Positions 4,301-50,375 of a stretch of 51,608 nucleotides of DNA are shown piece after piece. Position 1 is the first letter of the stretch; every line of letters starts with the position of its first letter. The DNA is taken from positions 1 through 51,608 of the forward strand of contig CAZGUS010000003.1 in the NCBI GenBank assembly GCA_964529245.1, given 5' to 3'. The notes beneath the pieces were generated by a model, which did no database searches, was not told where the DNA came from, and saw nothing but the letters and a program-made list of their open reading frames with translations. This stretch comes from an uncultured Anaerolineaceae bacterium. Its GTDB lineage: Bacteria; Chloroflexota; Limnocylindria; Limnocylindrales; CSP1-4. Made by a program: the position numbers and the translations under genes.

Positions 4301-4587
4301 CTTCGTGCGGGTCTAACGCTCACAACATACGCCTTCTGCACGGGTCGGGTCGCCGCGACGGAGCCGCGCCCAGGAGGCTCGTTGCTCGCCGTCCCATCAG
4401 CACTGGTGCTCCCGCAAACGGCTGCGTGGTCGCGTCGCCGATTAGGTCGATTGCCTTCGCCGCTCTCGCCAAGCTGAAGCCGAGTGCGCCACAACAAGTG
4501 TCGGGAAGCCGTCCGCTTGACAGTGCGACCGTCGAGAGCTACGGCGCCACCGCTGGCCCGCCGGCTTCGCACTACCGAGATGCCCGC

Positions 4588-22801: not shown

Positions 22802-22813
22802 GTTCGGCTCCCG

Positions 22814-23344: not shown

Positions 23345-24057
23345 TGCCCACGCTCCTCTTCCACGACCTTGAGCCACGGCAGGAAGGGCCGCTGCCTCTT
23401 GCTGCCCGACGCCACCGCTCGACCCTTTTCGAAGAGGGCGCCGGTGGGGCAGACCTGAACGCATTTGCCGCAACTGGTGCAGGTGGTCGATTCGCCCCAC
23501 GGGATGCCCATGTCCGTCTGGACGCGGGTCTCGAGGCCGCGATGCATGACGTCCCAGGTGTGCGCGCCTTCGATTTCGTCGCACACCCGAACGCAGCGCA
23601 GGCAGAGGATGCAGCGGTTGTGGTCGATGGCGAAGAGCCGGTGGCTGGCGTCGATGTCGACCTTGGGGCTGATCCGCGGCAGGTCGAAGTGGGTCAACTC
23701 GAGCTCGGCGGCCAGGTCCTGCAGCTCGCAGTGGTTGTTGGCCACGCAGACCGCGCAGACGTGATTGCGTTCGACGAAGAGCATCTCCGTCACAGCGCGG
23801 CGGTATTCCTGGAGCCTCTCGGAGTGCGCCGTGACCTCCATGCCCTCGGTTACTTTGGTCACGCAGGCGGCCGTGAGCTTGGGCGAACCTGCGATCTCGA
23901 CCATGCACAGGCGGCAGGCGCCGCGATCGTGGATGCCTTCGAGGTGGCAGAGGCCGGGGATGTTGATCCCGTTCTCCTCGGCCACTTCCATCACTGTCTG
24001 GCCTTCCGAACCGGCGACATCCTTGCCGTCGATGCGGAAGGTGAAGACGGTCGTCAT
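23341..24057 (-). CDS. hoxU: hydrogenase diaphorase Fe-S subunit (NuoG N-terminal-like)
   Basis: 2Fe-2[20 protein letters not shown], then [21 protein letters not shown] and [15 protein letters not shown] clusters. 238 aa. ATGA overlap with hoxF. Confidence 0.9.
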
Positions 24058-25709: not shown

Positions 25710-26197
25710 ATCGCCTCCAGCTCTGCAATGAGCTCAGTTGCGCCGACATGGCCTCTGACGTCGCCGTCGACGATGACGGCCGGGGCCAGGCTGCAGGCGC
25801 CCAGGCATCGGGCGGTCAGCAGGGAGACCTTGCCGTCGGCGGTCGTCTCTTTGGGCTTTACGTGCAGAGCGTCTTCCAGGCCGTTCAGGATCTGCTTCGC
25901 GCCGTTGATGTAGCAGGCCGTTCCGGTGCAGACGACGCAGGTGTGCTTGCCTTGCGGTTTGAGAGTGAAGAAGGAATAGAACGTCGCGACCCCGTAGACC
26001 CGGGAGTGGGGCACGCCAAGGGTGTCGCCGACGTAGTTCAGCGTGTCGGTGTCCAGGTACCCGAAGGCCTCCTGGGCGGCGTGGAGAGCCTCGATCAGCG
26101 CCGCGGGGCGGTCGCCCAGGCGGCGCATGCGTGTCTCCACGATCTTCCAGCGCTTGTCGTCGGTTGGCGCGGTTGGCTTGGCGTGCAGGACGGGCAT
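25706..26197 (-). CDS. hoxE: hydrogenase diaphorase 2Fe-2S subunit (NuoE-like)
   Basis: VATFYSFF...[10 protein letters not shown]...[20 protein letters not shown] 26197 sits 7 nt after GGAGG (ATG 26203 also possible). The track ORF from 26290 has no better signal. Confidence 0.85.
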
Positions 26198-26292
26198 TGC
26201 CATCCCTCCAGTGCGATGGGCAGCGAGCGCCGACAGAAGCCGCTCCGGCGCGTTTCGCGCAGTCGGAACGGGAACCTCCGAGCGGCGCAAGG

Positions 26293-29351: not shown

Positions 29352-29466
29352 GCATGACGCCGGAGCCTCGGGGAGTGGTTCTTGATTGAACCTCGAGACC
29401 AATCGAGGATCTCCGCATGCCACGGCGCCGAACAGGTGCCAGAGGTCCCTCCCGGGTGCGTCTATT

Positions 29467-29486
29467 TGGTATCCGCCTGGTATCCG
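29467..29486. promoter_or_regulatory. direct repeat TGGTATCCG-N2-TGGTATCCG (11-bp phasing) in the nifJ / GGDEF-EAL divergent intergenic region; candidate transcription-factor site
   Basis: Exact 9-mers at 29467-29475 and 29478-29486, unusually A/T-containing for this DNA, about 115 bp from the GGDEF-EAL start and 360 bp from the nifJ start. Confidence 0.35.
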
Positions 29487-29845
29487 GGCCGGGGTCAACG
29501 CGTGCCGCCTGGGTGGACGAGCCCGCCGCCGCGGGGCCGACCGACGCCCGTGGCGGGGCGCAGCGGCCCGGCCTGCCGGCGATCGTCGATCGTCGGAATC
29601 CGCTCGGTCTCGGGCCAGTGGCACCGGTCGGCACGGCCGTCTCGGGCCCGCTGGTATCGATCAGAGGGGCCGAAGGGCCTGCCCCGATGGCGGCACGGAC
29701 GGATATGATCGAACAACAGCGCGCCATGGGCGCACGACCACGCATTCCCTTCCAGCCAGGCTTGGGAACGTGCCGCATTCGAGTTCGTGTTCCGTCGGGC
29801 GGCCTCGCCGCCATGAGGAAGGCACGACCCAGGGAGATTCGACGA

Positions 29846-32800
29846 ATGGATCAGCGGTGGGAGTGTCTCGACGGTAACGAAGCGGCCGCCCGGGTCGCTT
29901 ACAAGGTGAGCGAGGTCATCTCGATCTTCCCGATCACGCCGGCCTCGCCGATGGCGGAGCATGCCGACGACTGGGCGGCTGCGGGCAAGCCGAACCTGTG
30001 GGGCAAGGTCCCGGACGTGGTCGAAATGCAGTCCGAGGGCGGCGCCGCGGGCGCGATGCACGGCGCACTTCAGAAGGGCGCACTGGCCACGACCTTCACG
30101 GCGTCCCAGGGCCTCCTGCTCATGATCCCGAACATGTTCAAGATCGCCGGCGAGCTGACCCCCGCGGTCATCCACGTCGCGGCTCGAACTCTCGCAACCC
30201 ACGCGCTGTCGATCTTCGGCGACCACAGCGACGTGATGCATGCCCGGGCGACGGGCTGGGCGATGCTGGCCGCTGGCTCGGTCCAGGAAGCCCACGACTT
30301 TGCCCTGGTCTCCCACGCCGCGACGCTCCGGTCGCGAGTCCCGTTCCTCCACTTCTTCGACGGCTTCCGGACATCCCACGAAGTCAACAAGATCGTGGTC
30401 CTAGAAGACGACGACATGCGGGCCCTGATCCGCGATGAGGACGTCCTGGCCTTCCGCAGCCGCGGCCTCACGCCGAACGCCCCGGTCGTGCGCGGCACCG
30501 CCCAGAACCCCGATGCCTTCTTCCAGGCCCGCGAGGCCTCGAACCCCTACTACCTGGCGCTGCCCGGCATCGTCAAGGAAGTGATGGACGAGTTCGCCGC
30601 CCGGACCGGCCGCCGCTACGGGCTGGTCGACTACCACGGCGCCCCGGACGCCGAGCGCGTGATCGTCGTGATGGGATCCGCCGTCGGCGCCGTCGAGGAA
30701 ACCGTCGATGCGCTCGTGGCCGCGGGCCAGAAGGTCGGCGTCCTGAAGGTGCGGCTGTTCCAGCCGTTCCCGATCGACGAGTTCGTCGCGGCGCTGCCCT
30801 CGACGGTGCGCGCCATCGCCGTCCTGGACCGGACCAAGGAGCCCGGCGCGGTAGGCGAGCCGCTCTACCTCGAGGTCGTGGCCGCCATCTCCGAGCGCAT
30901 GGACAGCGAGAAGCCGCCGTTCAAGACCGTCCCTAGGATCATCGGCGGGCGCTACGGCCTGTCCTCGAAGGAAGTCACGCCTTCGATGATCAAGCCCATC
31001 TTCGATGAGCTCTCCGCCGCGAAGGCCAGGAAGCACTTCACGATCGGCATCTACGACGACGTCACCCACCTCAGCCTGCCGATCGACACCGAGTTCCACC
31101 ACGCCCGACCGGCCGGCGAAGTCCAGGCCATGTTCTTCGGGCTCGGCTCGGACGGCACCGTCGGCGCCAACAAGTCGTCGGTGAAGATCATCGGCGAGGG
31201 CACCGACCTCTTCGCCCAGGGCTACTTCGTCTACGACTCCAAGAAGTCGGGCTCGGTCACCGTGTCCCACCTGCGATTCGGTCCCAAGCCGATCCGCTCC
31301 GCCTACCTCGTCGAGGGCGCGGACTTCGTCGCCTGCCACCAGTTCGGCCTCCTCGAGCGGACGAAGATCGTCGAGTTCGCCAAGCACGGGGCAACGTTCC
31401 TGCTCAACTCACCGTACGGCCCGGACGAAGTCTGGGATCAGCTCCCGAAGACGGTCCAGCAGCAGATGGTCGACAAGGCCATCGACCTGTGGGTGATCGA
31501 TGCCTTCGCCGTCGCCGAAGAAGTTGGCATGGGCAACCGCATCAACACGGTCATGCAGCCCTGCTTCTTCCATCTCGCCGGCGTTCTGCCCCCGGAAGAG
31601 GCGATCTCGCGTATCAAGAAGTTCACCCAGAAGACCTACGCCAAGCGCGGCCAGGCGGTCGTCGACCGCAACTTCGCGGCGATCGACATGTCGATCGGGC
31701 GGCTCGGCCACGTCAAGCTCGGGAAGGCGACGAGCAACCGCTCGCTGATGTTCTCGGTACCGGACACCGCCCCGGACTTCGTCAAGAAGGTGACCGCGGT
31801 GCTGATGGCCGGCGACGGCGACATGCTGCCGGTCAGCGCGTTCCCGGTCGACGGAACGTTCCCGACGGGCACCACCAAGTACGAGAAGCGCGCCATCGCC
31901 CAGTCGATCCCTGTGTGGGATCCGTCTATCTGCATCGACTGCGGCAAGTGCGCCATGGTCTGCCCGCACGCCACAATCCGGATGAAGGTGTTCCCGACCG
32001 CCGCGGCGGCGAATGCCCCGGCCGGCTATCTCACCAAGGAGTTCAAGTCCCGTGAGCTGCCGGATCATCTGATCACCATCCAGGTCGCCCCGGACGACTG
32101 CACCGGCTGCGGCGTCTGCGTCGACGTTTGCCCGGCCAAGAGCAAGACCGACTCGAGCCACAAGGCCATCAATATGGAGCCGGTCGAGGACCACGCCGAC
32201 GCCGAGCGCCCCAACTGGGACTTCTTCCTCTCCATCCCGCAGCTCGACCGCAACCTGCTGGCCCACGACACAGTGAAGGGATCCCAGGTCCTCGAGCCCC
32301 TCTTCGAGTTCTCCGGCGCGTGCTCCGGCTGCGGCGAGACGCCGTACCTGCGCCTCGTCAGCCAGCTCTTCGGCGACCGCATGATCGTGGCCAATGCCAC
32401 GGGCTGCACCTCGATCTACGGCGCCAACCTGCCGACCACGCCCTGGACGGTGAACGCCGCCGGACGCGGGCCGGCCTGGAACAACTCCCTCTTCGAGGAC
32501 AACGCCGAGTTCGGTCTGGGCATGCGCCTCGCGCTCGACGCCCAGAACGACCACGCTCGGGGGCTGTTGACTCGCCTGGCTGCTGTGGTCGGCGAGGACC
32601 TCGTTCGCGAGCTTCTCGAGAGCGCCCAGAACACCGAACCGGAGATCGACCTCCAGCGCGCCCGAGTGGCGCGGCTGCGGGAAAAGCTGTCGGGCGTGAA
32701 CGGCGCACACCGCGCCGAGGCCCAGCACCTGCTGGCGCTGGCGAACGACCTCGTCCGCCATGGAATCTGGATCGTCGGCGGCGACGGCTGGGCTTACGAC

Positions 32801-33484
32801 ATCGGCTTCGGCGGCCTCGATCAGGTCCTGAGCTCGGGTCGAAACGTCAACATCCTCGTCCTCGACACGGAGGTCTACTCCAACACCGGCGGCCAGGCGT
32901 CGAAGTCGACGCCGCGCGGCGCGGTGGCGAAGTTCGCCGCGGCCGGCAAGTCCACCGGCAAGAAGGACCTCGGCGCGATCGCCCGGGCCTACGGCAACGT
33001 CTACGTGGCCCAGATCGCGATGGGCGCAAACGACGCGCAGACCACGAAGGCACTGCTCGAAGCGGACGCCTGGCCGGGAACGTCGCTCGTGATCGCCTAC
33101 AGCACGTGCATCGCTCACGGCATCGACATGTCGACCTCGATGTCCCATCAGAAGGACGCCGTCAAGAGCGGTTACTGGCCGCTCTACCGCTACCAGCCCA
33201 GCGAAAACGAAGGCGGGCAGCCGTTCAAGCTCGACTCGAGCGCACCGTCCATACCGGTCAAGGAGTTCGTGGCGAGCGAGACCCGCTACGCCATCCTGGC
33301 CCGCACGAACCCCGAACGGGCGGCCGAGCTGGCCGAGCTGGCTCAGGCCGACACGGACGAGCGGCGGCGCTATTACGAACAGCTGGCCGGCATCCACCAG
33401 ACCGTCCCGCACCTCGACGAGGCCGATCTCGAAGCGGCCGTCGCCGCAGCAGCCGCCGCCGGGCGCGGCGTCGAGGAGGAGTAG
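29846..33484 (+). CDS. nifJ: pyruvate:ferredoxin (flavodoxin) oxidoreductase, single-polypeptide type
   Basis: AGGGAG RBS then MDQRWECLDGNEAAARVAYKVSEVISIFPITPASPMAE, the conserved PFOR N-terminus. Ferredoxin domain CIDCGKCAMVCPHA / CTGCGVCVDVCPA. TPP site GGDGWAYDIGFGGLD. 1212 aa. Confidence 0.95.
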   Translation: MDQRWECLDGNEAAARVAYKVSEVISIFPITPASPMAEHADDWAAAGKPNLWGKVPDVVEMQSEGGAAGAMHGALQKGALATTFTASQGLLLMIPNMFKIAGELTPAVIHVAARTLATHALSIFGDHSDVMHARATGWAMLAAGSVQEAHDFALVSHAATLRSRVPFLHFFDGFRTSHEVNKIVVLEDDDMRALIRDEDVLAFRSRGLTPNAPVVRGTAQNPDAFFQAREASNPYYLALPGIVKEVMDEFAARTGRRYGLVDYHGAPDAERVIVVMGSAVGAVEETVDALVAAGQKVGVLKVRLFQPFPIDEFVAALPSTVRAIAVLDRTKEPGAVGEPLYLEVVAAISERMDSEKPPFKTVPRIIGGRYGLSSKEVTPSMIKPIFDELSAAKARKHFTIGIYDDVTHLSLPIDTEFHHARPAGEVQAMFFGLGSDGTVGANKSSVKIIGEGTDLFAQGYFVYDSKKSGSVTVSHLRFGPKPIRSAYLVEGADFVACHQFGLLERTKIVEFAKHGATFLLNSPYGPDEVWDQLPKTVQQQMVDKAIDLWVIDAFAVAEEVGMGNRINTVMQPCFFHLAGVLPPEEAISRIKKFTQKTYAKRGQAVVDRNFAAIDMSIGRLGHVKLGKATSNRSLMFSVPDTAPDFVKKVTAVLMAGDGDMLPVSAFPVDGTFPTGTTKYEKRAIAQSIPVWDPSICIDCGKCAMVCPHATIRMKVFPTAAAANAPAGYLTKEFKSRELPDHLITIQVAPDDCTGCGVCVDVCPAKSKTDSSHKAINMEPVEDHADAERPNWDFFLSIPQLDRNLLAHDTVKGSQVLEPLFEFSGACSGCGETPYLRLVSQLFGDRMIVANATGCTSIYGANLPTTPWTVNAAGRGPAWNNSLFEDNAEFGLGMRLALDAQNDHARGLLTRLAAVVGEDLVRELLESAQNTEPEIDLQRARVARLREKLSGVNGAHRAEAQHLLALANDLVRHGIWIVGGDGWAYDIGFGGLDQVLSSGRNVNILVLDTEVYSNTGGQASKSTPRGAVAKFAAAGKSTGKKDLGAIARAYGNVYVAQIAMGANDAQTTKALLEADAWPGTSLVIAYSTCIAHGIDMSTSMSHQKDAVKSGYWPLYRYQPSENEGGQPFKLDSSAPSIPVKEFVASETRYAILARTNPERAAELAELAQADTDERRRYYEQLAGIHQTVPHLDEADLEAAVAAAAAAGRGVEEE

Positions 33485-39363: not shown

Positions 39364-39559
39364 CCGGCATGGTTCGCCGGGGAGACTTTCGGACTCGTGG
39401 TTCGGCCGCGACGATCGGCCTCGCTGGCTCGATCTGTCCATTGCGTCTTCCGGCAGGCCGCCGGAACATGACACGGATCGCGCCGTGTCGCGTCCTGCCG
39501 GCAGCTCGGGGCGGCACTGGTGGGCTACCGACTTTCGAGTTCCGGACGGGAGGCGTGAA

Positions 39560-42500
39560 GTGACTTCGATGCGCAGGGTCCTGCCGTTGGCGGCGCTGCT
39601 TGCGATCGTCACCATGAGCGCTCCCACGGGCGCCGCCGCGTCGGCTCAGGCCGCTCCGGCCGGCGGCGCCGGTTCTCAGGCCGCTCCGGCCGGCGGCGCT
39701 GACGCGGTCGGCCTGACCGGCACGCTGCGGCTGGCAATCGCCGACGACTTCTCGGGCGGGCAGTCGCAAACGCTGTACTCCATCGACAACGCCGCCGGAT
39801 CCACGCCGATCACCATCACCGGAGCCGGCGCCGACGAACTCGACGGCGCGTTGGTCCGAGTCTCCGGCCGCCGTCAGGCCGACGGCAGCGTCGCGGTCGC
39901 CGCGGGCCAGATCGTGGTCGTGAAGACCGCCGCCGAGAACCCGGACGCGGCCGGCCTCGGCTTCCGATTCGGGTCGGGCGGCGCCTTGCCGGCCGTGCCC
40001 GCCAGCCAGAGCGTGGCCGTGGTAATCGCCGACTACACGGACCTGGCCGGCTGGCCGGTCACGGTGGCCGATGCGCAGCAGACATTTACCGGCTCGACGG
40101 CGTCGGTCCACAGTTACTTCGAGGCGACCTCGCGCGGCCGCTTCAGCACCACGGCAACCGTGCTGGGGCCGTGGCATCTGGGCATCGCCCAATGCGCCGG
40201 CGGCAACACGAGCTGGTCGCTCAGCGCCACCGTGGCCGCTGCCGCGAGCCAGGCAACGGCACATGGATACAACCTCAACTCGTACGACCACGTAGTGATC
40301 TGGACGAAGGCGCCGTGCAAGCTGGGCTGGGCCGGTATCGGCCAGATGCCCGGCAAGTACGTGCAGATCGACATGGACTGGGCCACATACACCGGCGACG
40401 AGCCGGCAGTCACGACCATGGTCGCTTCGCACGAACTCGGGCACAACCTCGGCCTGGATCACTCGAACGGCCTGGGATGCTTCGACGGCCTGGGCAACCA
40501 GGTCGAACTCGGCAGCGCCTGCCTGGATTACGAGTACCTCGACGAGTACACGACGATGGGCATGGCCGGCGCTTCCGATCACGCTCTGCTCGACGCCGAC
40601 CGCCTCGAGTCCCTGGGCTGGCTGGCTGCCGGTGAGTCTCAGGACGTGACCGGCGTGGGCACCTATTCCCTTGTGCCGGTCTATTCGAGCTCGCCGGGAG
40701 TGCGCTTGCTGCGCATCGCAAGACCGACGCCCGTGCTGGGCGGGGGCCTGTCGGGCGCATGGACGCTGGAGCTGCGATCGACCCTCGTCGGGGCCGCGTG
40801 GGATCAGTTCGCCGCATCGACGTATTCGCCCGTCACGACCGGCGTGACCGTCAGGTATTCGGAGGGCTTCGGCCAGTCCGGCATCTCCGGCCAGAGCTAT
40901 CTGGTCGACTCCGTACCCGACGCCGTGAACTCCAACACCCCCGACTTCTGGGATGCGCCCTTCGAACCCGGCGCAACCTTCAGCGACCCGACCGGCGGCT
41001 TCACCATCACTGTGGACTCCGTCAACGGATCCGGCGCCAGCGTCACCATCGGCGACACTCAGGCGCCGACCGCGCCGCTCTCGCTCGAGGCGACCGCCCT
41101 GCCCACCGGCGGCGCGGAGCTCGACTGGCAGGCAGCGTCGGACAACCTTGGCCTGGCCGGCTATCGGGTCTATCGCGGCGGCACCTTCCTGGCCACGGTC
41201 CCGGCCGGCACACTGACATACGAGGATCCGCCGGCCGGCGTGGGCGGGTTCCAAAGCTACTCCGTGACCGCGGTCGACACCGCCGGCCTGGAGGGTCCGG
41301 CCGCGACCGCGAGCGCGAGCCTGCTTCCGCCGCCGAGCGCGCCGCAGTCGCCGACTGCCACGGCCGGCAACGGCGCCGCGCTGGTGAGATGGAGCCCGCC
41401 GGTCTCCGGGGCGCCGATCACCGCGTACACCGTCACCTCGAACCACGGCCAGATGTGCGCCACGACCGGCGCACTCAGCTGCATCGTGGGCGGTCTCACC
41501 AACAACACCTCGTACACCTTCACAGTCACGGCCACCAACATGGTCGGGACGGGCCCGGCCTCGAGCGCGACCGCCGCCGTGACGCCGCTGCCGGTGCCGG
41601 GCCGCCCCACCGGCGTGTCGGGCGTCCCCGGCGACACGACCGTCGTTGTCTCCTGGGCCGCCCCCGCCGACCAGGGTTCGAGCTCGGTGAGCGCGTATAC
41701 GGTCACTTCCTCGCCGGGCAACTTCAGCTGCTCCCCGAACCCGGGCAACCTCTTCTGCACCGTCGGCGGGCTGGCCGACGGCGTGCCCTACTCGTTCACG
41801 GTCACCGCAACCAACGACCTGGGCACGGGTCTGCCGTCCGATCCGTCGCCACCGATAACGCCGCGCACCCGCCCCGACGCTCCCGTCGACGTCGTCGCGC
41901 TGGGCTCGAACCGTTCGGCCCTCGTCTCGTGGGGATCGCCTCCGTTCAACGGCGGGAGCCCCGTCCTTTCCTACGACGTCGTCTCCACGCCCGATTCTCT
42001 GACCTGCCATACGACCGGAGCGCGTTCCTGCACGATCTCGGGGCTGACCAACAGAGTCACGTACACGTTCTCCGTCACCGCCACGAACGTGGCCGGCACC
42101 AGCGATCCGTCCGCGGCCTCGCCCGGCGCGATGCCGCTTGCCGGAGCCACGTACGTGCCTATCACTCCGAACCGACTCGTCGATTCGCGCGCCGGCACGC
42201 GTCTCGGGCTCACGGCCTCGTTGAGCAACAAGGTCCCGGTCTCGTTCCAGGTAACCGGCCGTTCGGCCGATCCGAGCCTCGACATTCCAACCGGCGCGGT
42301 CGCCGTTACCGGCAACCTGACCGTGGTCGATCAAGGCTCGTACGGCTACCTGAGCCTGACTCCCGCCAGGCCCGTCGGAACCCCGGCCACATCGACGCTC
42401 AACTTCCCCGCCGGAGACACTCGGGCCAACGCCGTCACGGTTCCACTTGGCGCGGGCGGAACGCTGTGGGTCACGTTCGTGGGCGTCTCCGGCAAGAAGG

Positions 42501-43354
42501 CCGACGTGATATTCGACGTGACCGGCTATTTCGCCGGCAACTCGGCCGGCGCGACCTATCTGCCGCTCACGCCGAACAGGATCCTGGACTCGCGCAGCCC
42601 GACGAGACTCGGGATGCCGGCGTCGCTCACCTCGGGCACGCCGGCGAGCTTCCAGGTGACGGGGCTCTCGGCCGATCCTGAGCTGAACGTTCCGTCCGGC
42701 GCGGTCGCCGTCGTCGGCAACCTCACTGCCGTAAACGAGGCCGCGGGCGGTTACTTCAGCCTGACGCCCGCCAGTCCGGCAGGCCTTCCCGGAACCTCGA
42801 CCATCAACTTCCCGGCCGGCGACACGCGGGCCAACGCGGTGACCGTTCCGCTCGGAGCGGGCGGCGTGCTGTGGGTCACCTTCGAAGGCAAGGTCGGTTC
42901 GCACGCGGACGTGATATTCGACGTGACCGGCTACTTCGTTCCGGACACGAGCGGCGCTACCTACGTCGTCCTCACGCCGAACCGCCTGGTCGACTCCCGT
43001 GCGGGGACCCGCCTGGGGCTGGCGGCGTCGCTGACGTCGAAGGCCCCGGCCGAGTTCGAGGTCACCGGTCGATCGGGCAACGCGGCCCTGAACGTCCCCT
43101 CGGACGCGGTCGCCGTCACGGGCAACCTGACCGCCGTCGGCGCGACTTCAGGCGGCTATTTCGCCCTGACCCCGGACGACCCGGGCGGGACGCCCGCGAC
43201 GTCGACGCTCAACTTCCCCAGGGGCGACACGCGAGCCAATGCGGTCACGATCCCGCTGGGAAGCGGTGGCGGACTGTGGGTCACGTTCGTCGGCGCCACG
43301 GGAACCCACGCCGACGCCGTCTTCGACGTGTCCGGCTACTTCACGATGGGCTGA
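39560..43354 (+). CDS. large secreted multidomain zinc metalloprotease: signal peptide, metzincin-type catalytic domain, 4 FN3 domains, 3 copies of an unassigned 135-aa module
   Basis: GGGAGG RBS at 39548, GTG 39560 (ATG 39569 alternative). Signal MRRVLPLAALLAIVTMSAPTGAAASAQA. HELGHNLGLDH at 40430-40462 (HExxHxxGxxH). FN3 signatures (W..P.....I..Y.V......C...SC.V.GLTN...Y.F.V.A.N..G.G). Confidence 0.85.
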   Translation: MTSMRRVLPLAALLAIVTMSAPTGAAASAQAAPAGGAGSQAAPAGGADAVGLTGTLRLAIADDFSGGQSQTLYSIDNAAGSTPITITGAGADELDGALVRVSGRRQADGSVAVAAGQIVVVKTAAENPDAAGLGFRFGSGGALPAVPASQSVAVVIADYTDLAGWPVTVADAQQTFTGSTASVHSYFEATSRGRFSTTATVLGPWHLGIAQCAGGNTSWSLSATVAAAASQATAHGYNLNSYDHVVIWTKAPCKLGWAGIGQMPGKYVQIDMDWATYTGDEPAVTTMVASHELGHNLGLDHSNGLGCFDGLGNQVELGSACLDYEYLDEYTTMGMAGASDHALLDADRLESLGWLAAGESQDVTGVGTYSLVPVYSSSPGVRLLRIARPTPVLGGGLSGAWTLELRSTLVGAAWDQFAASTYSPVTTGVTVRYSEGFGQSGISGQSYLVDSVPDAVNSNTPDFWDAPFEPGATFSDPTGGFTITVDSVNGSGASVTIGDTQAPTAPLSLEATALPTGGAELDWQAASDNLGLAGYRVYRGGTFLATVPAGTLTYEDPPAGVGGFQSYSVTAVDTAGLEGPAATASASLLPPPSAPQSPTATAGNGAALVRWSPPVSGAPITAYTVTSNHGQMCATTGALSCIVGGLTNNTSYTFTVTATNMVGTGPASSATAAVTPLPVPGRPTGVSGVPGDTTVVVSWAAPADQGSSSVSAYTVTSSPGNFSCSPNPGNLFCTVGGLADGVPYSFTVTATNDLGTGLPSDPSPPITPRTRPDAPVDVVALGSNRSALVSWGSPPFNGGSPVLSYDVVSTPDSLTCHTTGARSCTISGLTNRVTYTFSVTATNVAGTSDPSAASPGAMPLAGATYVPITPNRLVDSRAGTRLGLTASLSNKVPVSFQVTGRSADPSLDIPTGAVAVTGNLTVVDQGSYGYLSLTPARPVGTPATSTLNFPAGDTRANAVTVPLGAGGTLWVTFVGVSGKKADVIFDVTGYFAGNSAGATYLPLTPNRILDSRSPTRLGMPASLTSGTPASFQVTGLSADPELNVPSGAVAVVGNLTAVNEAAGGYFSLTPASPAGLPGTSTINFPAGDTRANAVTVPLGAGGVLWVTFEGKVGSHADVIFDVTGYFVPDTSGATYVVLTPNRLVDSRAGTRLGLAASLTSKAPAEFEVTGRSGNAALNVPSDAVAVTGNLTAVGATSGGYFALTPDDPGGTPATSTLNFPRGDTRANAVTIPLGSGGGLWVTFVGATGTHADAVFDVSGYFTMG
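39645..39699 (+). repeat. 30-bp-period tandem duplication (25-bp perfect core CTCAGGCCGCTCCGGCCGGCGGCGC, two copies)
   Basis: Copies at 39645-39669 and 39675-39699. They encode AQAAPAGGA twice, just after the signal peptide of the metalloprotease. Confidence 0.8.
41057..42139 (+). repeat. four tandem fibronectin type III domain coding units (about 270 bp each)
   Basis: Protein-level repeats ending ...YSVTAVDTAGLEG, ...YTFTVTATNMVGTG, ...YSFTVTATNDLGTG, ...YTFSVTATNVAGTS. Confidence 0.8.
42143..43351 (+). repeat. three tandem 405-bp (135-aa) coding repeats of an unassigned domain
   Basis: Units start at 42143, 42548 and 42953 (GATY[VL]P[IL]TPNR[LI][VL]DSR ... FQVTG ... P.GAVAV.GNLT ... GY[LF]SLTP ... 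TSTLNFP.GDTRANAVT.PLG.GG.LWVTF ... DV.FDV.GYF). Confidence 0.9.
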
Positions 43355-43702: not shown

Positions 43703-44080
43703 ATGGAACTCTACGGCGTCCGCATCCCCACCATCGTCAGCGACAACGTGGCCGTCCGCTGTGCCGGCTGCGGCGAGATCATCGAAGGCACGCCCTGGCG
43801 TGTGAGCATCCTCGATGTCGTGGCTCCCGAGGCGCCGGTATCCTGGACGGAGACGGCCGCCCTGAACCCGGGCCCGTTCGAGTTCCACAGCGAGCCGAGC
43901 CATGTGCGGGCGTGGATGTCCAAGCGTGGGCTGCTCTTCTGCCGCCGCTCCCGAATCCGCGAGATCATGAGGCCGGTGTGGCTGCCCGTCGAGCCGCGCC
44001 GGTTGGGTCTATGCGACGGACTCCATCGCGACGATCACGAGTTTGTGGACCCGGCCGCCGTCGCGGCCGATCGAAGCTGA
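43703..44080 (+). CDS. hypothetical protein (125 aa) immediately upstream of galU
   Basis: High third-position G+C. One CxxC (RCAGCGE). Stop lies 6 nt before the galU ATG. Extended -10-like TGCTACGAT ends 9 nt upstream of the ATG. Confidence 0.5.
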   Translation: MELYGVRIPTIVSDNVAVRCAGCGEIIEGTPWRVSILDVVAPEAPVSWTETAALNPGPFEFHSEPSHVRAWMSKRGLLFCRRSRIREIMRPVWLPVEPRRLGLCDGLHRDDHEFVDPAAVAADRS

Positions 44081-44086
44081 GGGCAA

Positions 44087-44965
44087 ATGCGAGTACGCAA
44101 GGCCGTCTTTCCCGTGGCGGGTTGGGGAACCCGCTTTCTACCGGCAACCAAGGCCCTTCCCAAGGAGATGCTCCCGCTCGTTGACAAACCCGTCATCCAG
44201 TACGCCGTCGAGGAGGCGGTCGCGGCCGGCATCGAGCAGGTCATCATCGTCACCAGCAGCCAGAAGCGCGCGATCGAGGATCACTTCGACCTGAACCTGG
44301 AGCTCGAGCAGCTGCTCGAGTCGCGCGGCGACATCGAGATGCTCCGCCAGATCCGGGCCATCTCGGACCTGGCTCAGATCTCCTACGTTCGCCAGAAGGA
44401 ACAGCTCGGACTGGGCCACGCGGTTCTTGTGGCAAAGGAGCTGGTCGGCCACGAACCGTTCGCGGTGATCCTCCCGGACGACGTGGTGGTGGGCGAGCGG
44501 CCCTGCATCGGCCAGTTGATCCACGCCTATCTCCAGACACATTCATCGGTCGTGGGCGTGGCCGAAGTGCCCCATGAGGAGACAGGCCGCTACGGCATCA
44601 TCGACGGGCACCTCGCGGACGGCGGCCTCGACCCGCGCCTCTACAAGGTGTCGGGCCTGGTCGAGAAGCCGGATCCGGCGGTGGCACCCTCGAATCTCGG
44701 CATCATCGGCCGCTACGTACTGACTCCCAAGATCTTCGACAAGCTCGAGCAAACCCAGCCCGGCGCCGGCGGTGAGATCCAGCTGACGGACGCGATCGAA
44801 GCCTTGATGCAGGAACAGGACGTCTACGGGTATGCCGTCGAGGGCAAGCGTTACGACGCCGGCACCACAATGGGCTGGCTGAAAGCGTCCGTCGAGTTGG
44901 CGATGCAGCGTCAGGACATCGGTGACGAGTTCCGGCGATACTTGCAGGGGCTCGACCTTAGCTAG
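44087..44965 (+). CDS. galU: UTP--glucose-1-phosphate uridylyltransferase
   Basis: KAVFPVAGWGTRFLPATKALPKEMLPLVDKPVIQY, VRQKEQLGLGHAV and VEKP motifs. 292 aa. Confidence 0.93.
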   Translation: MRVRKAVFPVAGWGTRFLPATKALPKEMLPLVDKPVIQYAVEEAVAAGIEQVIIVTSSQKRAIEDHFDLNLELEQLLESRGDIEMLRQIRAISDLAQISYVRQKEQLGLGHAVLVAKELVGHEPFAVILPDDVVVGERPCIGQLIHAYLQTHSSVVGVAEVPHEETGRYGIIDGHLADGGLDPRLYKVSGLVEKPDPAVAPSNLGIIGRYVLTPKIFDKLEQTQPGAGGEIQLTDAIEALMQEQDVYGYAVEGKRYDAGTTMGWLKASVELAMQRQDIGDEFRRYLQGLDLS

Positions 44966-44995: not shown

Positions 44996-45049
44996 GGGCA
45001 GTCGATCAAACTCCGGGACAAACCGGAGCCGGTATTTTGAGGAATTTCT

Positions 45050-46966
45050 GTGGCCGAGATCGGACAGGTAATCGGGGGGCGCTACCGGCTCCTGGAGCTG
45101 CGCGGGGAGGACGCCGTCTCGACGGTCTTCCGCGCCAGCGATGCCGAGAATGGCCGAGTCGTGGCTGTCAGGTGGCTTCGCCCCGAGCTCGGCGCCGATC
45201 CGGACTTCATGGCCGAGTTCCGGCTGGCGATGCGCGCGGCGGCCGGCCTGGAGCAGCCCAACCTCGTGGCCATCTACGACTTCGGGGTTGAGGGCAAAGA
45301 CGCCTTCGTAGTCACCGAGTTTGTGGACGGGCAGGAGCTGGGCTCGCTACTGGCGCGGAACGGCCCCGTTCCGCCGCGGAGGGCGGCCAGCGTCGCAAGC
45401 GTGGTCGCCGAGGCGGTGGCCGCGGCCCACGAGCGTGGCATCGTCCACGGCGGCGTTCGGTCGGGCAGCGTGCTCGTCACCCGCGATGGGCAGATCAAGC
45501 TCGCCGACCTCGGGCTCGCGCGCGCCCTGGCCGAGTCGTCGATGCGGCCGGCGCTCTCCGTAGAGGAGGCCTGGTATCAGAGCCCCGAACAGGCCAGGGG
45601 TCGGCGCGCCACCGACGCGTCGGACATCTACGCGCTGGGCGTGCTGCTGTTCGAGCTGCTCACCGGCCGAGGGCCATGGGACGGCGTCACCGCCGACGCG
45701 ATCGCGAAGGCCAGGCTGGCCGATCCGAACCCCGCGCCGTCCGACTTCCAGGGTGGCCTACCGGCCGAGCTGGAAGCCATCGTACGCAGGGCCATGGCCA
45801 CCGACCCGACGCGGCGATTCGACTCGGCCGGGACGCTCGCGACGGCGCTCGACGACGTGATCGCTCGGCTCGACGCCCTGCTCTCGATGCAGTCGGACGA
45901 CGACGTCGACGATGCGCCGGCGGTGCCCACCACCACCTACGTGACCCCCGAAACCGAATTCGTGGCCCCGCCTTACTCCCGTCCCGGCGCCGCGCCGGCC
46001 GATCCCACGCTCGTGTCTCCCCCGATCCCGCCCGTGCCGGTGGTGCCGCCCGTAGTCGTGCCGCCGGTATTGCCGGTCCCGCCGGCGGCGCCGCCGGTTC
46101 GCCGCCCCAACCCGACGGCGCACGTGGTGTACGCCCCCGATGCCTACGCCGACGACGCGGCGGCCGAGGACGACTTCGGCGCCGCGGCCCGCGGGCGAAG
46201 CGGCTACTCTCCCGACGGGCTGGCAAACCGCGTGACCCGCCGCATCAATCCGATCGAGCCCGATGCGGAGGAGTTCGAGGAGGAGGCGAACCCCGTCAGC
46301 ACCTGGGCCTGGGTCGCCGGCTTCCTGGCGCTCTTCCTGGTCACTCTGATCGGATTGACGATCTACCTGCTCATCAGCCGCGGATCCTCGGGCGGCACCG
46401 TTTACGCTCCCGATCTGGTGAACGTTTCGTACAGCGTCGCCGAGCAGACCGCCCAGGCCGCCGGACTGCAGATCTCGGTGTCGGCCACAGCGACCAACGA
46501 CGGCACACAAACCGATCAGACGATCGTGTCCCAGAACCCTGCATCCGGGGCCGCCATGAGCGCCGGCGGCACCATCTACGTGGTTGTCGTCAGCGGCACG
46601 GCCACGGTCGTAGTGCCCGACGTTCGCGATCTGACCGAGAGCGACGCGCTCAACGCCCTCGCGTCGGCAGGCCTGACCGCGGGCGACCGAACCGAGGCGT
46701 ACGATCCGACGATCCCGGAGGGTCAGGTCGTCAGCAGCAACCCGAAGGTGGGCTTGACGGTCCTGAAGGGTTCGCCGGTCGACTACGTCGTCTCGATGGG
46801 CCCGCAGCCGTCGCCCTCGCCGACCGACTCCGCGACGCCTTCGCCCAGCCCCACTCCGACCCCGACCCCGGCGCCCACTCCGACCCCGACCCCGGCGCCC
46901 ACTCCGACCCCGACCCCGACTCCGACTCCGACCCCCACCAAGGCGCCGACGGCCAGCCCCTCGTAG
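45050..46966 (+). CDS. PknB-like membrane protein with a degenerate (pseudo)kinase domain, one TM helix, 2 PASTA domains and a Pro/Thr-repeat tail
   Basis: GAGGA RBS 6 nt before GTG. Kinase fold retained (SPEQARG, SDIYALGVLLFELLTG) but catalytic motifs are altered (see finding). TM WAWVAGFLALFLVTLIGLTIYLLI. PASTA units VYAPDLVNVSY...IVSQNPASG and VVVPDVRDLTE...VVSSNPKVG. Confidence 0.85.
   Translation: MAEIGQVIGGRYRLLELRGEDAVSTVFRASDAENGRVVAVRWLRPELGADPDFMAEFRLAMRAAAGLEQPNLVAIYDFGVEGKDAFVVTEFVDGQELGSLLARNGPVPPRRAASVASVVAEAVAAAHERGIVHGGVRSGSVLVTRDGQIKLADLGLARALAESSMRPALSVEEAWYQSPEQARGRRATDASDIYALGVLLFELLTGRGPWDGVTADAIAKARLADPNPAPSDFQGGLPAELEAIVRRAMATDPTRRFDSAGTLATALDDVIARLDALLSMQSDDDVDDAPAVPTTTYVTPETEFVAPPYSRPGAAPADPTLVSPPIPPVPVVPPVVVPPVLPVPPAAPPVRRPNPTAHVVYAPDAYADDAAAEDDFGAAARGRSGYSPDGLANRVTRRINPIEPDAEEFEEEANPVSTWAWVAGFLALFLVTLIGLTIYLLISRGSSGGTVYAPDLVNVSYSVAEQTAQAAGLQISVSATATNDGTQTDQTIVSQNPASGAAMSAGGTIYVVVVSGTATVVVPDVRDLTESDALNALASAGLTAGDRTEAYDPTIPEGQVVSSNPKVGLTVLKGSPVDYVVSMGPQPSPSPTDSATPSPSPTPTPTPAPTPTPTPAPTPTPTPTPTPTPTKAPTASPS
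46849..46940 (+). repeat. 24-bp tandem repeat (CCCACTCCGACCCCGACCCCGGCG, about 3.8 copies) encoding PTPTPTPA units
   Basis: Perfect copies start at 46849 and 46873, with a degenerate extension from 46897. Lies in the C-terminal tail of the PASTA protein. Confidence 0.85.
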
Positions 46967-47033: not shown

Positions 47034-48239
47034 TCAGGTGGTGGTCAGCGATGTGGTCGCCTGGATCTGATCGCCGGACGCGGTGCTGACCAGCACCGTC
47101 GCAGCGCCGACGCCCGGCGTCGCCCCTGAGATCGTCACCTTCCACGTGGCCGTACCGGTCTGATCCGTGATCAGCTGGGGCGAGACGATCGGTCCCAGAC
47201 CGGCCACGGACACGGTGAACGTGACCTGCGCTCCCGCCAGCGGACCGCCGTTGGAAGAGGTGGCGTGCGCCGTGAGCCTTATCGTCGTGGGTCCTTTGGC
47301 CCCGAACCTGGCGGGCGATACCGACAGATGTGCCCCCAGTGATCCGAACGCTCGTTTGACGGTCAGCTGAGCCGTGCTCACGTTCCCGGCCTGATCGGTA
47401 GCCGTGATCGCGATGGAGTTCGATCCCGCGACCAGGCCTACCGTTATTGCGAACAGGCCGTCCGGCCCGACAACCTTGCTGCTCAGCTCGCCGCCCGGAG
47501 CCTGCTTGTTGCGGACCGTCACCGTGGCGCCGGGGTCGGTCTTGCCGGAGATGACGGCCGAGCTGCCGGATTGCGTGCTGCCGTCGGCCGGCGAACCGAT
47601 GGACAGTTTGGGCGGTACCGTGTCGAGGATGTAGACGACCTCCGGCGACGGCTGACCCTCCACGCTGGGGGTCACGAGCGCAGCGGCAAAGGTGTTGGTG
47701 CCCTCGGCCAGCGGGACGGCGGGCGTGCTGAAATGCGCGGTCGCGCCGACGTTGACCAACGCGACCTGGCTTCGCGTCCCACTCGAGGCGATGGCGTAGA
47801 CCCTCACGCTGTAGCCCGTCTTGCCGACGGCCGCCGCGGGAACGCTGCCCGACAGGGAAATCGTGGGCTGGTTCGTGTAGCCGCCGTTCGAGGGCGCGTC
47901 GAGGACCGGTGTGTCGAGGGCCACGCCCGAAGGCGCCACGGTCGCCGGCGCCTGGGACGAGACCTTCGAGATGGCGCCGTCGAACGCCTGCGCGACCTGG
48001 CCGACCACACTGACAAGGATGTTTCCACCCACGATCAGCATCGCGACGCCCATCACCAGGAACAGCGCGATCACGCCGATGCCGATCGGCGCCGGAACGC
48101 CCTTGCTGGTCCGGACCGGTCGATATCGGCGAACCAGGTTGCTTGCTGGAGCGGAGGCCCTTATCTGATGGGTTCGGAGCCGGTCGCCCGACGGCGGCAG
48201 GGGTCGAACGTGGGCCGCTCGGCGTTCTCGCATCGGCAT
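47034..48239 (-). CDS. single-pass membrane protein with tandem bacterial Ig-like (Big) domains
   Basis: TM IGIGVIALFLVMGVAMLIVGG. Thr/Ser/Val/Gly-rich beta-sandwich-like repeats (TNTFAAALVTPS, NSIAITATDQAGNVS). The alternative 490-aa frame is Arg/Gly-rich. Confidence 0.7.
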   Translation of the reverse strand: MPMRERRAAHVRPLPPSGDRLRTHQIRASAPASNLVRRYRPVRTSKGVPAPIGIGVIALFLVMGVAMLIVGGNILVSVVGQVAQAFDGAISKVSSQAPATVAPSGVALDTPVLDAPSNGGYTNQPTISLSGSVPAAAVGKTGYSVRVYAIASSGTRSQVALVNVGATAHFSTPAVPLAEGTNTFAAALVTPSVEGQPSPEVVYILDTVPPKLSIGSPADGSTQSGSSAVISGKTDPGATVTVRNKQAPGGELSSKVVGPDGLFAITVGLVAGSNSIAITATDQAGNVSTAQLTVKRAFGSLGAHLSVSPARFGAKGPTTIRLTAHATSSNGGPLAGAQVTFTVSVAGLGPIVSPQLITDQTGTATWKVTISGATPGVGAATVLVSTASGDQIQATTSLTTT

Positions 48240-48555: not shown

Positions 48556-48936
48556 ATGAACGGGCGGTTCGGCCCGCGACCAACGGCGTCTTTCCCGGCT
48601 TCGAGCCGGACGGCGAGCCGAACCCTGCCGGTCATCACCCACCGCGAAACCGCTCAGCCCAGCCGCTACCCTTCGATGCCCGGCGTCCGATCCGGCTTTG
48701 GGCTGCCGAACCTGCGCCGCAACGTCTGCCCGCACTTCTACATGACCGGCAGCCGCGGCGCGATCCCGATCCAGGCCCCGCATCTTCTGAAGGCACTCAT
48801 CCGCCAGGAGCAGAACGTCTCGCGCTGCCAGCTGCGCGGCGGCGTTCACCTCGAGCAGGGCTATGTGAACGACGTCTGCCTTACGCCGCGATTCAACCAG
48901 TGCGTCTTCTACGAAGACGAACTGACGAAGGATTGA
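48556..48936 (+). CDS. small Cys-containing hypothetical protein ending at the folC start
   Basis: The C-terminal 80 codons have strong third-position G+C bias (RNVCPHFYMTG...RCQLRGG...DVCLTPRFNQCVFYEDELTKD). Start uncertain (ATG 48556 or ATG 48676). No family recognised. Confidence 0.45.
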   Translation: MNGRFGPRPTASFPASSRTASRTLPVITHRETAQPSRYPSMPGVRSGFGLPNLRRNVCPHFYMTGSRGAIPIQAPHLLKALIRQEQNVSRCQLRGGVHLEQGYVNDVCLTPRFNQCVFYEDELTKD

Positions 48937-50375
48937 CCAGGCGCATCGCCCGCTCTCGCCCGACCCTCGGCTACCCGGAGGCGCTCGCGGCTCTCGAGTC
49001 GCGCGGCCGGTTTGGGATTCACCTGGGGCTGGCCAGGACGCGGGCGCTCCTGGCAGCGCTCGACCACCCGGAGCGTTCCTTTCGCGGCGCGCTGATCGCC
49101 GGAACCAATGGCAAGGGCAGCGTCCTGGCCATGGTCGCCGCCGCGCTCCAGGCTGCCGGCTACCGGACCGGGGCCACTCCCAAGCCCCACCTGGTCACCT
49201 ATCGCGAGCGGCTGCAGATCGACGGCCTGCCGGTTGATCCCGAGACCTTCGGTCGCGTCGCCGGCGACGTGCTGGCGCTCGCCGACCGCGTTGCCCGGCG
49301 CCACGGCGAGCCGACGGAGTTCGAACTGCTGACGGCGATAACGTTCCGCTGGTTCGCCGAGGCCGGCATCGATCTGGCGGTCGTCGAAGTCGGCCTCGGA
49401 GGGCGGCTCGACGCCACCCACGCCTGGGACGGCGGCGTGGCAGTGGTGACGAACGTCTCGCTCGACCACATGGACCGGCTGGGTTCGACGGTCGAAGCGA
49501 TCGCACACGAGAAGGCGGCGATCATCATGCGCGGCGACGAAGCGGTGACGGGCGCCTGGGGCGGGGCCCTCGGGGTGGTCCGGCGTCGCAGCCGCCGCGT
49601 CGCGGCCCCGCTCCGGGTCGTGGCGCCGGCGCCGTTGCTCGGATTTGATCGGGACGGGATCGAGGTCGAGCTCGGGCGACTCGGATCGGTTCGCGTGGCG
49701 CTCAGGGGCCGCCATCAGGCCGCGAACGCGGCGGTCGCCGACGCCACGCTGGATGCGCTCGAGACGGCCGGCATCGCTCGAGTCGGCCCCGACGCTCGTC
49801 GGGCGGGGTACGCGTCGGTGCGCTGGCCGGGGCGGCTGGAGTTGGTCGAGGTCGCGGGCCGGGAAGTCATCCTGGACGGCGCCCACAACCCGGCCGGGGC
49901 GGCGACCCTCGCCCAAGCTCTCGACGACCTGGCGCCGTTCATGGCACCCGGCCGCCCGACCCTCGTCGTGGCGGTGATGGCCGACAAAGACGTGGATGGA
50001 GTCCTGGGCGCCATGGCCGGCGCCGGCCTGCTCCGGGATGCTCGAGTGATCTGCACTGCCCCGGCGGGCGGCCGCGCCCTTCCGCCCGAGCAGCTCGCCG
50101 CCCGCTGGGCAGCCGCGGCGGCCGCGGCGGCCCAGCGTGGTTCCGGCACCGGCCGGCCCGGCACCGGTGATTCCGGGGTCGAGTCCATCGCCGAGCCCCG
50201 AGCTGCGCTGGATGCGGCGATGAGCAGTGGTTCCGGCCCCGTGATCGTCGCCGGCTCCCTCTACCTCGTCGGGGCGGCGCGGGCCATACTCGTTGCCGAC
50301 CCGCGTCTGGTGCCCGATCCGGCGCCGGCGCCGTCCGCCGTATCGCCCTCACCGCCGGAGGATCCGCCTCGATGA
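48933..50375 (+). CDS. folC: bifunctional folylpolyglutamate synthase/dihydrofolate synthase
   Basis: P-loop IAGTNGKGS, HLVTYRERL, EVGLGGRLDATH, DGAHNPAG. TTG 48933 overlaps the upstream stop (ATTGA); GTG 48900 is an alternative. Confidence 0.88.
   Translation: MTRRIARSRPTLGYPEALAALESRGRFGIHLGLARTRALLAALDHPERSFRGALIAGTNGKGSVLAMVAAALQAAGYRTGATPKPHLVTYRERLQIDGLPVDPETFGRVAGDVLALADRVARRHGEPTEFELLTAITFRWFAEAGIDLAVVEVGLGGRLDATHAWDGGVAVVTNVSLDHMDRLGSTVEAIAHEKAAIIMRGDEAVTGAWGGALGVVRRRSRRVAAPLRVVAPAPLLGFDRDGIEVELGRLGSVRVALRGRHQAANAAVADATLDALETAGIARVGPDARRAGYASVRWPGRLELVEVAGREVILDGAHNPAGAATLAQALDDLAPFMAPGRPTLVVAVMADKDVDGVLGAMAGAGLLRDARVICTAPAGGRALPPEQLAARWAAAAAAAAQRGSGTGRPGTGDSGVESIAEPRAALDAAMSSGSGPVIVAGSLYLVGAARAILVADPRLVPDPAPAPSAVSPSPPEDPPR

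Follow-up and report, generated by a model that had tools for sequence, protein, structure and literature searches.

A conserved PASTA receptor pseudokinase at the locus of an active PASTA kinase in Candidatus Limnocylindrales (Chloroflexota)

The window analysed here is a stretch of 51,608 nucleotides (G+C ~69%) from an uncultured Anaerolineaceae bacterium (GTDB lineage Bacteria; Chloroflexota; Limnocylindria; Limnocylindrales; CSP1-4), which covers most of a 56.7-kb contig (CAZGUS010000003.1, assembly GCA_964529245.1). Towards its end lies an open reading frame (ORF) of 638 codons plus stop, with a GTG start, which an initial annotation, made from the sequence alone, had described as a PASTA-domain receptor with a catalytically dead kinase domain. 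The GTG start is kept in all the orthologous loci described below, and the databases contain an identical protein from two metagenome contigs, the products of independent assemblies of two samples. The protein has the architecture of the Stk1/PknB family, with a kinase domain, one transmembrane helix and extracellular PASTA repeats (Table 1). Pfam matches were obtained for Pkinase (PF00069; E-value 4.2e-31, 108.8 bits against a cut-off of 31.7) over residues 18-257, and for PASTA (PF03793; 1.3e-20, 73.5 bits against a cut-off of 23.2) over two stretches, while the top model for the protein was the NCBIfam PASTA-kinase equivalog NF033483, with 352.3 bits, under its 450-bit cut-off. In the AlphaFold2 (AF2) model, obtained with a 68-sequence alignment, the predicted local distance difference test (pLDDT) score is above 95 in the kinase domain, above 90 in both PASTA units and below 50 for residues 285-416. 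The top Foldseek matches of this model are PknB, PknA and Stk1 (target-normalised template-modelling scores of 0.82-0.89), and the closest solved relatives are the kinase domains of Mycobacterium tuberculosis PknB (3f61, phmmer E-value 6.5e-47), Streptococcus pneumoniae StkP and PknA.

The PknB fold signature recognised in the initial annotation is borne out by the Pkinase profile match and by the presence of SPEQARG, DASDIYALG and RRAMATDPTRRF; the C-lobe motifs are kept, and the activation segment has its full length, with no insertions relative to PknB. The catalytic residues were read from the phmmer alignment with PknB. In the glycine-rich loop (G-loop), G18-F-G20-G21-M-S of PknB corresponds to G19-E20-D21-A22-V-S, with D21 replacing the second Gly of GxGxxG. 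The β3 Lys of the VAIK motif (PknB K40) is R41, encoded by AGG, and the αC Glu (PknB E59) aligns to A60. The catalytic loop H-R137-D138-V-K140-P-A-N143 reads H133-G-G-V-R137-S-G-S140, in which the Arg and Asp of HRD, the Lys and the Asn are all gone. A salt bridge between D21 and R41 or R137 may be guessed at. Only D153 is left of the catalytic triad (PknB D156-F-G, D153-L-G in the window protein). E56 takes the place of the C-helix Arg that is typical of bacterial serine/threonine kinases (bSTKs) and is singled out as a bacterial hallmark in the bSTK atlas, which corresponds to a charge reversal and not to a shifted αC Glu. T171 and T173 of the PknB activation loop correspond to Met and Pro, and as these two Thr have been lost along with the Arg of HRD and that of the C-helix, the entire phospho-activation switch has been dismantled. 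Where PASTA kinases have intact catalytic residues the window protein has R41, A60, G135 and S140, with D153 alone retained, and its kinase domain is without five of the six canonical catalytic/ATP-binding elements. The motifs located in the initial annotation (LRGEDAVS, residues 17-24, 45098-45121; VAVRWL, residues 38-43; EFRLAMRAAAG, residues 56-66) are all placed exactly, and because the PknB alignment restores no Lys, Asp or Asn at the catalytic positions, its observation of a degenerate G-loop, a VAIK Lys changed to Arg, a missing αC Glu, an HRDxKxxN motif turned into HGGVRSGS and a DFG motif turned into DLG with the Asp kept stands.

Table 1. Features of the pseudokinase gene and of its nearest neighbours, in positions of the window.
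Feature	Position	Strand	Basis or remark
galU-like UTP-glucose-1-phosphate uridylyltransferase gene, upstream neighbour	44087-44965	+	94-98% identical in orthologous loci
GAGGA, Shine-Dalgarno-like	45039-45043	+	6 nt 5' of GTG; read from sequence
PASTA receptor pseudokinase, whole ORF	45050-46966	+	ORF listing, Pfam, identical protein on record
Pseudokinase domain, ~residues 10-270, complete Hanks fold	45077-45859	+	Pfam, PknB alignment, AF2, Foldseek, dN/dS
Degenerate G-loop LRGEDAVST, residues from 17	45098-45124	+	PknB alignment, clade columns
R41 (AGG codon), PknB K40 equivalent, β3 VAIK Lys lost	45170-45172	+	
αC segment E56-F-R-L-A60	45215-45229	+	PknB alignment, orthologue comparison
Catalytic loop HGGVRSGS, residues 133-140, against HRDxKPxN	45446-45469	+	
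DLG, residues 153-155, DFG equivalent	45506-45514	+	D153 and G155 invariant in clade
Pro-rich intracellular juxtamembrane linker, ~residues 276-416, predicted disordered	45875-46297	+	
Conserved linker motif RRPNPTAHVVYAPDAYA, first RRxNP plus YxxDxYA	46100-46150	+	
RRINP motif just N-terminal of the transmembrane helix	46238-46252	+	Invariant in HGG clade
Single transmembrane helix, ~residues 418-444	46301-46381	+	W419 and W421 invariant
PASTA unit 1, ~residues 449-515	46394-46594	+	Pfam; AF2 pLDDT >90
PASTA unit 2, ~residues 517-583	46598-46798	+	Pfam; AF2
Extracellular Pro/Thr-rich (PT) C-terminal tail	46802-46963	+	Comparison with active orthologues
Ig-like (Glucodextran_B/Big_6/Big_1) membrane protein gene, convergent neighbour	47034-48239	-	Adjoins kinase/pseudokinase in every locus examined
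Folylpolyglutamate synthase-like gene (folC), then folP	48900-50375	+	Downstream syntenic neighbour

A search of 5.8 billion proteins retrieved 709 relatives, and the catalytic columns were read in the best 120 of these 709. Among them, P0001-P0015 (49-81% identity to the query) present an H-G/A-G-x-R-S/A catalytic loop, a G-E-D-type G-loop and no αC Glu, and are referred to here as HGG forms; P0016 and P0017 have HGD-x-R/Q-P-x-N (HGD forms), and the matches from P0018 onward are canonical, with GQGGMAT, VAVK, QEAQ, HRDVKPGN and DFG. The related loci come from metagenome-assembled genomes (MAGs) of Chloroflexota/Candidatus Limnocylindrales recovered from fen, peat, permafrost and Danish soils. 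In a 16-sequence alignment of the HGG clade the invariant positions include D21, H133, G135, R137, D153, G155, PEQ179-181 and the tryptophans of the transmembrane helix, as well as R11 and D77 (PknB R10 and D76) and two juxtamembrane motifs, RR351/352-x-[N/D]-P and R397-R-I-N-P401, with E20 being near-invariant. None of the 16 members has the HRD Asp, and 13 lack the VAIK Lys, the β3 Lys being still present in the other three (P0005-P0007).

Selection on the different parts of the gene was estimated with the Nei-Gojobori method, after aligning its codons with those of the counterparts at six orthologous loci. For the closer genomes, in which the synonymous divergence (dS) is 0.22-0.74, the ratio of nonsynonymous to synonymous substitution rates (dN/dS, or omega) takes values of 0.10-0.26 for the dead kinase domain, compared with 0.27-0.79 for the linker and 0.16-0.40 for the transmembrane and PASTA part; the kinase domain of one pair of active orthologues gives 0.087. 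As dN/dS is lowest in the dead domain, this is the best-conserved part of the protein. The substitutions are common to 16 homologue clusters of 53-81% identity and under purifying selection, which places them beyond chance or sequencing error. In the bSTK atlas a pseudokinase is defined by the loss of at least one of the VAIK Lys, the HRD Asp and the DFG Asp. Here residues of the triad are substituted and the substitution is conserved in orthologues, and the window protein, with its Hanks fold and PASTA architecture, is a pseudokinase in this operational sense and lacks what defines a PASTA kinase catalytically. Members of the HGG clade are recorded in the databases as 'serine/threonine protein kinase', so that the public annotation is misleading.

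In a neighbour-joining tree of the kinase domains the HGG forms are monophyletic (100/100) and sister to the HGD forms (100/100), and the whole degenerate group is nested, on long branches, within the active Limnocylindrales kinases (96/100). Active forms share 48% identity with outgroup PASTA kinases, and HGG forms 36%. This pattern suggests that the sequence changed rapidly along the stem before constraint set in again. An exhaustive search with hidden Markov models was also carried out on 1.84 billion representatives at 50% identity, in which the matches were mostly giant multi-PASTA and multi-kinase proteins. The whole HGG clade corresponds there to a single representative (P0003), and the only other degenerate relatives among the representatives were P0152, an HGD form, and P0145, which constitutes a third branch with HASMRPDN. 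The αC Glu (replaced by Gln or Ala) and the HRD Arg are lost in all three degenerate branches, and the remaining losses are specific to each: the catalytic Asp, the Pro and the Asn in HGG forms, the Asp (to Ser) in P0145, the DFG Asp in P0017 and the APE motif in HGD forms. Such differing losses are as expected once catalysis is no longer selected, but the fold still is.

Degenerate kinase domains were also found in five tandem kinases (P0207, P0214, P0248, P0272 and P0274), in which an N-terminal domain with HGDLRPAN or HGNLCAAN and a degraded G-loop is followed by a canonical domain with HRDVKPxN. Two Pkinase stretches are recognised by Pfam in P0207, and the tandem order is that of a JAK-like pseudokinase-kinase arrangement in bacteria.

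The genomic context relates the pseudokinase directly to active kinases. Five MAG species share the gene order of a large secreted fn3/metallopeptidase-like protein, a 125-aa ORF, galU, the pseudokinase, the Ig-like protein on the opposite strand and folC. The active kinases P0032, P0018, P0034 and P0020, which represent both active subclades, sit in the same slot, in the order galU, kinase, Ig-like (minus strand), folC, folP, folB, HtrA, histidine kinase, response regulator and L25, and so do the HGD form P0016 and the distant HGG form P0009. The slot is occupied by an active kinase in four loci (L007, L009, L013 and L014), by an HGD form in one (L012) and by an HGG form in seven (the window, equivalent to L010, L001-L005 and L008). 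The pseudokinase is therefore the positional orthologue of the active PASTA kinase of this lineage, and not a degenerate spare copy; the initial annotation had considered an active paralogue elsewhere in the genome. Since the two close active subclades are both encoded at this position in other genomes, a duplication followed by decay is ruled out. No second kinase or PASTA gene was found in the window, where tblastn with the kinase part and with the PASTA part of the protein matched the gene itself and nothing else. Nor does any other match among the 709 relatives come from a contig with the length of one of the large pseudokinase contigs, which is weak evidence that no further such kinase is encoded in the same MAGs.

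The loss of the catalytic residues was accompanied by linked changes inside and outside the domain. Twenty positions are fixed differently between 13 HGG forms and 17 active orthologues, and all the catalytic elements are covered by them: positions 20, 21 and 24 in the G-loop, 56, 59 and 62 in the C-helix (R to E at 56), and 134, 135, 137 and 138 in the catalytic loop. The other switch sites comprise the change of E-Q to R-R at 185/186, after APE, and a few core positions. Outside the domain, three PASTA stretches are found in every intact active orthologue, and two plus a PT tail in every degenerate form. The tail corresponds to the linker that leads to the third PASTA unit in active orthologues, a unit that is missing from the window protein. 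The two PASTA units and PT-repeat stalk proposed in the initial annotation are confirmed by the two Pfam stretches and by a 24-nt repeat, present 4.1 times at 46850-46947, and because active orthologues have three units, the two-unit ectodomain is a derived trait linked to kinase death. Three HGG-clade members (P0004, P0006 and P0008) have an Arg/His-rich, out-of-frame-looking tail within or after PASTA unit 2 or the PT region, likely due to frameshift errors in the repetitive PT-coding DNA.

On the cytoplasmic side, the segment that joins the kinase domain to the transmembrane helix is longer in HGG forms (141-167 aa, against 74-140 aa in active forms) and carries two RRxNP motifs in 16 of 16 HGG forms but in none of the 19 active or HGD relatives. 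The YxxDxYA part of the linker motif is present also in active orthologues, and RRxNP may not be a wholly new gain, as weaker precursors are found in P0020 (ARPNPGARVPYAPDAYA) and in HGD forms (VRRAQPVEPEPE).

Taken as a whole, we consider it probable that the gene encodes a selectively maintained, non-catalytic PASTA receptor pseudokinase, which arose in place and serves as a docking or allosteric platform. The ancestor would have been a single PASTA Ser/Thr kinase of Candidatus Limnocylindrales, encoded between galU and the Ig-like gene and folC. The αC Glu, the HRD Arg and the third PASTA unit would have been lost before the degenerate branches separated, and in the HGG branch the catalytic Asp, the Lys and Asn of the loop, the second Gly of the G-loop (replaced by an invariant Asp) and, in most members, the β3 Lys would have followed. 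With the catalytic residues lost, the protein should not transfer phosphate by the canonical mechanism, and we infer that it does not catalyse phosphotransfer. Normal ATP-Mg binding is also unlikely, judging from the residues involved: the Gly positioned above the phosphates has given way to an invariant Asp, and the Lys-Glu pair has been lost. Binding of wall ligands and targeting by PASTA units is an established role in PknB, PrkC and StkP, and the two units of the window protein may bind, or localise to, peptidoglycan or lipid-II-type ligands, or sites of wall synthesis. The rigid, constrained dead domain, together with the juxtamembrane motifs (the two RRxNP and YxxDxYA), would then form a docking or allosteric surface for cytoplasmic partners, the output being through scaffolding or allostery, in line with the reading of the initial annotation.

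Several observations weigh against this proposal. No FHA, PP2C or second kinase gene that might encode a partner was found in the window (Pfam, 30 other ORFs) or in the 20-kb loci. The clade keeps D153 and G155 without exception, the β3 Lys persists in three members, and the adenine pocket has no obvious bulky filler, so the dead domain may keep some nucleotide or metal binding; some supposed pseudokinases (WNK, CASK, SelO) proved to be active by unusual routes. An allosteric version based on dimers is weakened by the polar N34, which takes the place of PknB L33 in the hydrophobic core of the back-to-back dimer interface, though R11 and D77 are invariant. Docking through phospho-Thr of the MviN/FhaA type, for which TxxI/V sequences in the RRPNPT and VTRRI motifs would be candidates, is less likely, because these linker Thr are not invariant in the clade, which weakens the version of a pure MviN-style scaffold.

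Among other explanations, the one that fares best is that of an allosteric co-receptor, whose partner would be an active Hanks kinase encoded at another place in the genome; by dimerising with this kinase when a PASTA ligand binds, the dead domain would switch it on or off, in the manner of HER3 and EGFR. The intact and highly constrained fold agrees with this role, as does the invariance of R11 and D77, equivalent to the salt-bridge pair R10/D76 of the PknB N-lobe dimer, and the dead/live tandem proteins of other bacteria mentioned above demonstrate that such pairings occur. Mutation of L33 breaks the PknB dimer, the matched PknB structures being L33D/E mutants, and where active orthologues have Leu at this position, members of the clade have N, S, Q or K. 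A second kinase was found neither in the window nor in the loci, and the close active kinases sampled are all orthologues in other genomes, not paralogues, all of which makes a co-receptor of this kind rather unlikely.

We regard it as improbable that the protein is an atypical enzyme, in which phosphoryl transfer or another nucleotide reaction is rescued by relocated residues, as in WNK or SelO. The invariant D153-x-G155, the β3 Lys of some members and the new invariant charged residues D21, E56, R137 and R186, which cluster around the former active site, could be read in this way. However, five elements were lost together, an invariant acidic residue at the second Gly of the G-loop should repel phosphates, the Asn position 140 varies freely between S, T, R and K, and the sister branches lost different residues (the DFG Asp in P0017, the HRD Asp in the HAS motif of P0145 and APE in HGD forms).

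StkP PASTA repeats have been reported to recruit or restrain a wall hydrolase, and a function of the ectodomain only, e.g. of this type, would leave the cytoplasmic domain as a passive folded anchor. In its favour, the PASTA units show good conservation and a confident fold prediction, and the ectodomain was remodelled from three to two units alongside kinase death. A passive anchor is nevertheless expected to shrink or drift, whereas no region of the protein is under stronger constraint than the kinase domain (omega 0.10-0.26), and in the cytoplasmic half juxtamembrane motifs and invariant residues that are specific to the clade have become fixed, so this explanation appears very unlikely. 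Finally, a decaying pseudogene or a sequencing or assembly artefact, which the frameshifted C-termini of P0004, P0006 and P0008 in the PT-rich tail and the fragmented neighbours in L008 might have suggested, is refuted by the intact frame of 601-648 aa in the window, L001-L005 and L008, by the independent assembly of the identical protein in two samples, by omega values far below 1 and by dozens of columns that stay invariant down to 53% identity.

Regarding the neighbouring genes, the Ig-like membrane protein gene is convergent with the kinase or pseudokinase gene in active and dead loci alike, and its product is a possible functional partner of the receptor on the outer face of the membrane. 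The 125-aa ORF (43703-44080, plus strand), with no Pfam match, lies directly 5' of galU in pseudokinase and HGD loci (L008, L010, L011 and L012). The gene for the 1289-aa secreted protein (39485-43354, plus strand), which has weak matches to M11/M12-type metallopeptidases, three fn3 domains and three C-terminal repeats of ~130 aa, is found 5' of galU in HGG loci (the window and L002-L005), whereas active loci carry EamA and other genes there. Between the active kinase and the Ig-like gene of three active loci there is an ORF of 100-119 aa without Pfam match (L009 11849-12154, L013 12054-12356 and L014 11985-12344, all on the minus strand), which is absent from pseudokinase loci, where the gap between the two genes is ~70 nt. 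In L008, the locus of P0009 (contig_26264 of ERZ25039554), galU has 141 aa, folC is in pieces and folP has 229 aa, while the pseudokinase is intact; the broken genes are probably due to indel errors of long-read assembly. Between galU and the ribosome-binding site of the pseudokinase gene, a hairpin CTCCGG-GACAAA-CCGGAG (45011-45028) followed by CCGGTATTTT (to 45037, plus strand) resembles a terminator, but as terminator-like sites in the region are not above shuffle expectation, no inference is drawn from it on co-transcription with galU.

Elsewhere in the window, a cluster on the minus strand (21380-26290) resembles a NAD-linked bidirectional [NiFe] hydrogenase, with NiFeSe_Hases large, NuoG-like Fe-S, Nuo51-like FMN and 2Fe-2S thioredoxin-like subunits. 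It is followed by a PAS-GGDEF-EAL protein of 1054 aa (26460-29624, minus strand) and a pyruvate:ferredoxin oxidoreductase of 1355 aa as listed (29417-33484, plus strand). Because these two ORFs overlap head to head by ~200 nt, the true start of the oxidoreductase is probably further downstream than listed; its first Pfam match begins at residue 160. Envelope-related genes include those for a VanW-like protein (4426-5394, plus strand) and a type I signal peptidase (S26; 2279-2866, minus strand).

The model of how growth, division and antibiotic tolerance are tied to the status of the wall in monoderm bacteria is built on PASTA kinases, with ligand-induced phosphorylation as their assumed mode of action. 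The keeping of receptor, fold and locus under strong purifying selection, with catalysis discarded, implies that a PASTA receptor can serve an important function independently of kinase activity, and offers a natural experiment to separate scaffolding from catalysis in proteins of the PknB/StkP type. The active, HGD/HAS and HGG forms also constitute a rare stepwise series at one orthologous locus for the study of pseudoenzyme evolution. More tentatively, the dead protein may be the only PASTA receptor of its lineage, and possibly its only wall-linked Hanks-type protein, with peptidoglycan status being relayed without phosphorylation. If true, this lineage would provide the first example in bacteria of a receptor kinase pathway turned over entirely to non-catalytic signalling, with the HRD, HGD/HAS and HGG forms at one locus as a record of the successive steps.

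The canonical PASTA kinases (PknB, Bacillus subtilis PrkC, StkP and Staphylococcus aureus Stk1; NF033483, 'KAPD') share with the window protein the succession of Hanks domain, linker, transmembrane helix and PASTA units, and differ from it in having three PASTA units instead of two, a shorter linker, no RRxNP motifs and intact catalytic residues. The 2025 bSTK atlas and its companion review recognise seven families of bacterial pseudokinases (ActPs1-3, GLW, CP1, DYD and DLHK), with the PASTA family KAPD being canonical. Compared by the published family features, the window protein fits none of the seven. The initial annotation knew of no characterised PASTA pseudokinase, and our search of 8 million full texts of PubMed Central (PMC) and of bioRxiv, including the atlas and the review, likewise found no description of a PASTA-linked pseudokinase (Kwon et al. 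2019, PMC6997932, lay outside its scope), so that a conserved protein of this kind apparently was undescribed until now. What is added here is that the dead state is ancient, conserved and selected, that the dead form took over the locus of the active kinase, and that one PASTA unit was lost and juxtamembrane motifs were fixed; this PASTA-linked Chloroflexota clade joins the short list of bacterial pseudokinase families, for none of which a PASTA domain is described in the sources covered.

From this list, M. tuberculosis MviN (Rv3910)/ActPs3 is also a membrane-tethered pseudokinase and docking platform with a link to peptidoglycan synthesis, which is phosphorylated by PknB and recruits FhaA (review PMC12599244). 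It differs in being actinobacterial and in its fusion partners, which are a flippase of the MurJ type and a carbohydrate-binding domain outside the cell instead of PASTA, and ActPs3 proteins have lost the DFG Asp and commonly have a 40-residue deletion in the activation loop, whereas the window protein keeps D153 and a full-length activation segment and has no MurJ. The ActPs2 family shares the conserved change of the β3 Lys to Arg and a transmembrane helix C-terminal to the domain. However, these actinobacterial proteins, for which no PASTA is reported, present an HRD Asp changed to Asn, a deletion of DFG, and insertions of 32 aa between β3 and αC and of ~250 aa in the activation loop, while in the window protein the Asp is changed to Gly, DLG is present and neither insertion is found. 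The CP1 pseudokinases, in contrast to the window protein, are cytosolic and associated with COG3899. YukC/EssB of type VIIb secretion is likewise a bacterial single-pass membrane protein that uses a cytoplasmic pseudokinase fold as a scaffold, but it belongs to a secretion machine, carries no PASTA domains and is far in sequence from Hanks kinases. Outside the bacteria, HER3/ErbB3, EphB6 and the plant receptor-like pseudokinases combine, as here, a ligand-binding ectodomain, one transmembrane helix and a dead domain that signals through partners, and EphB6 and KSR1 also carry the change of the β3 Lys to Arg (bSTK atlas/companion review). These eukaryotic receptor pseudokinases are of independent origin, have other ectodomains and coexist with active paralogues, whereas in Candidatus Limnocylindrales the dead form replaced its active orthologue in situ.

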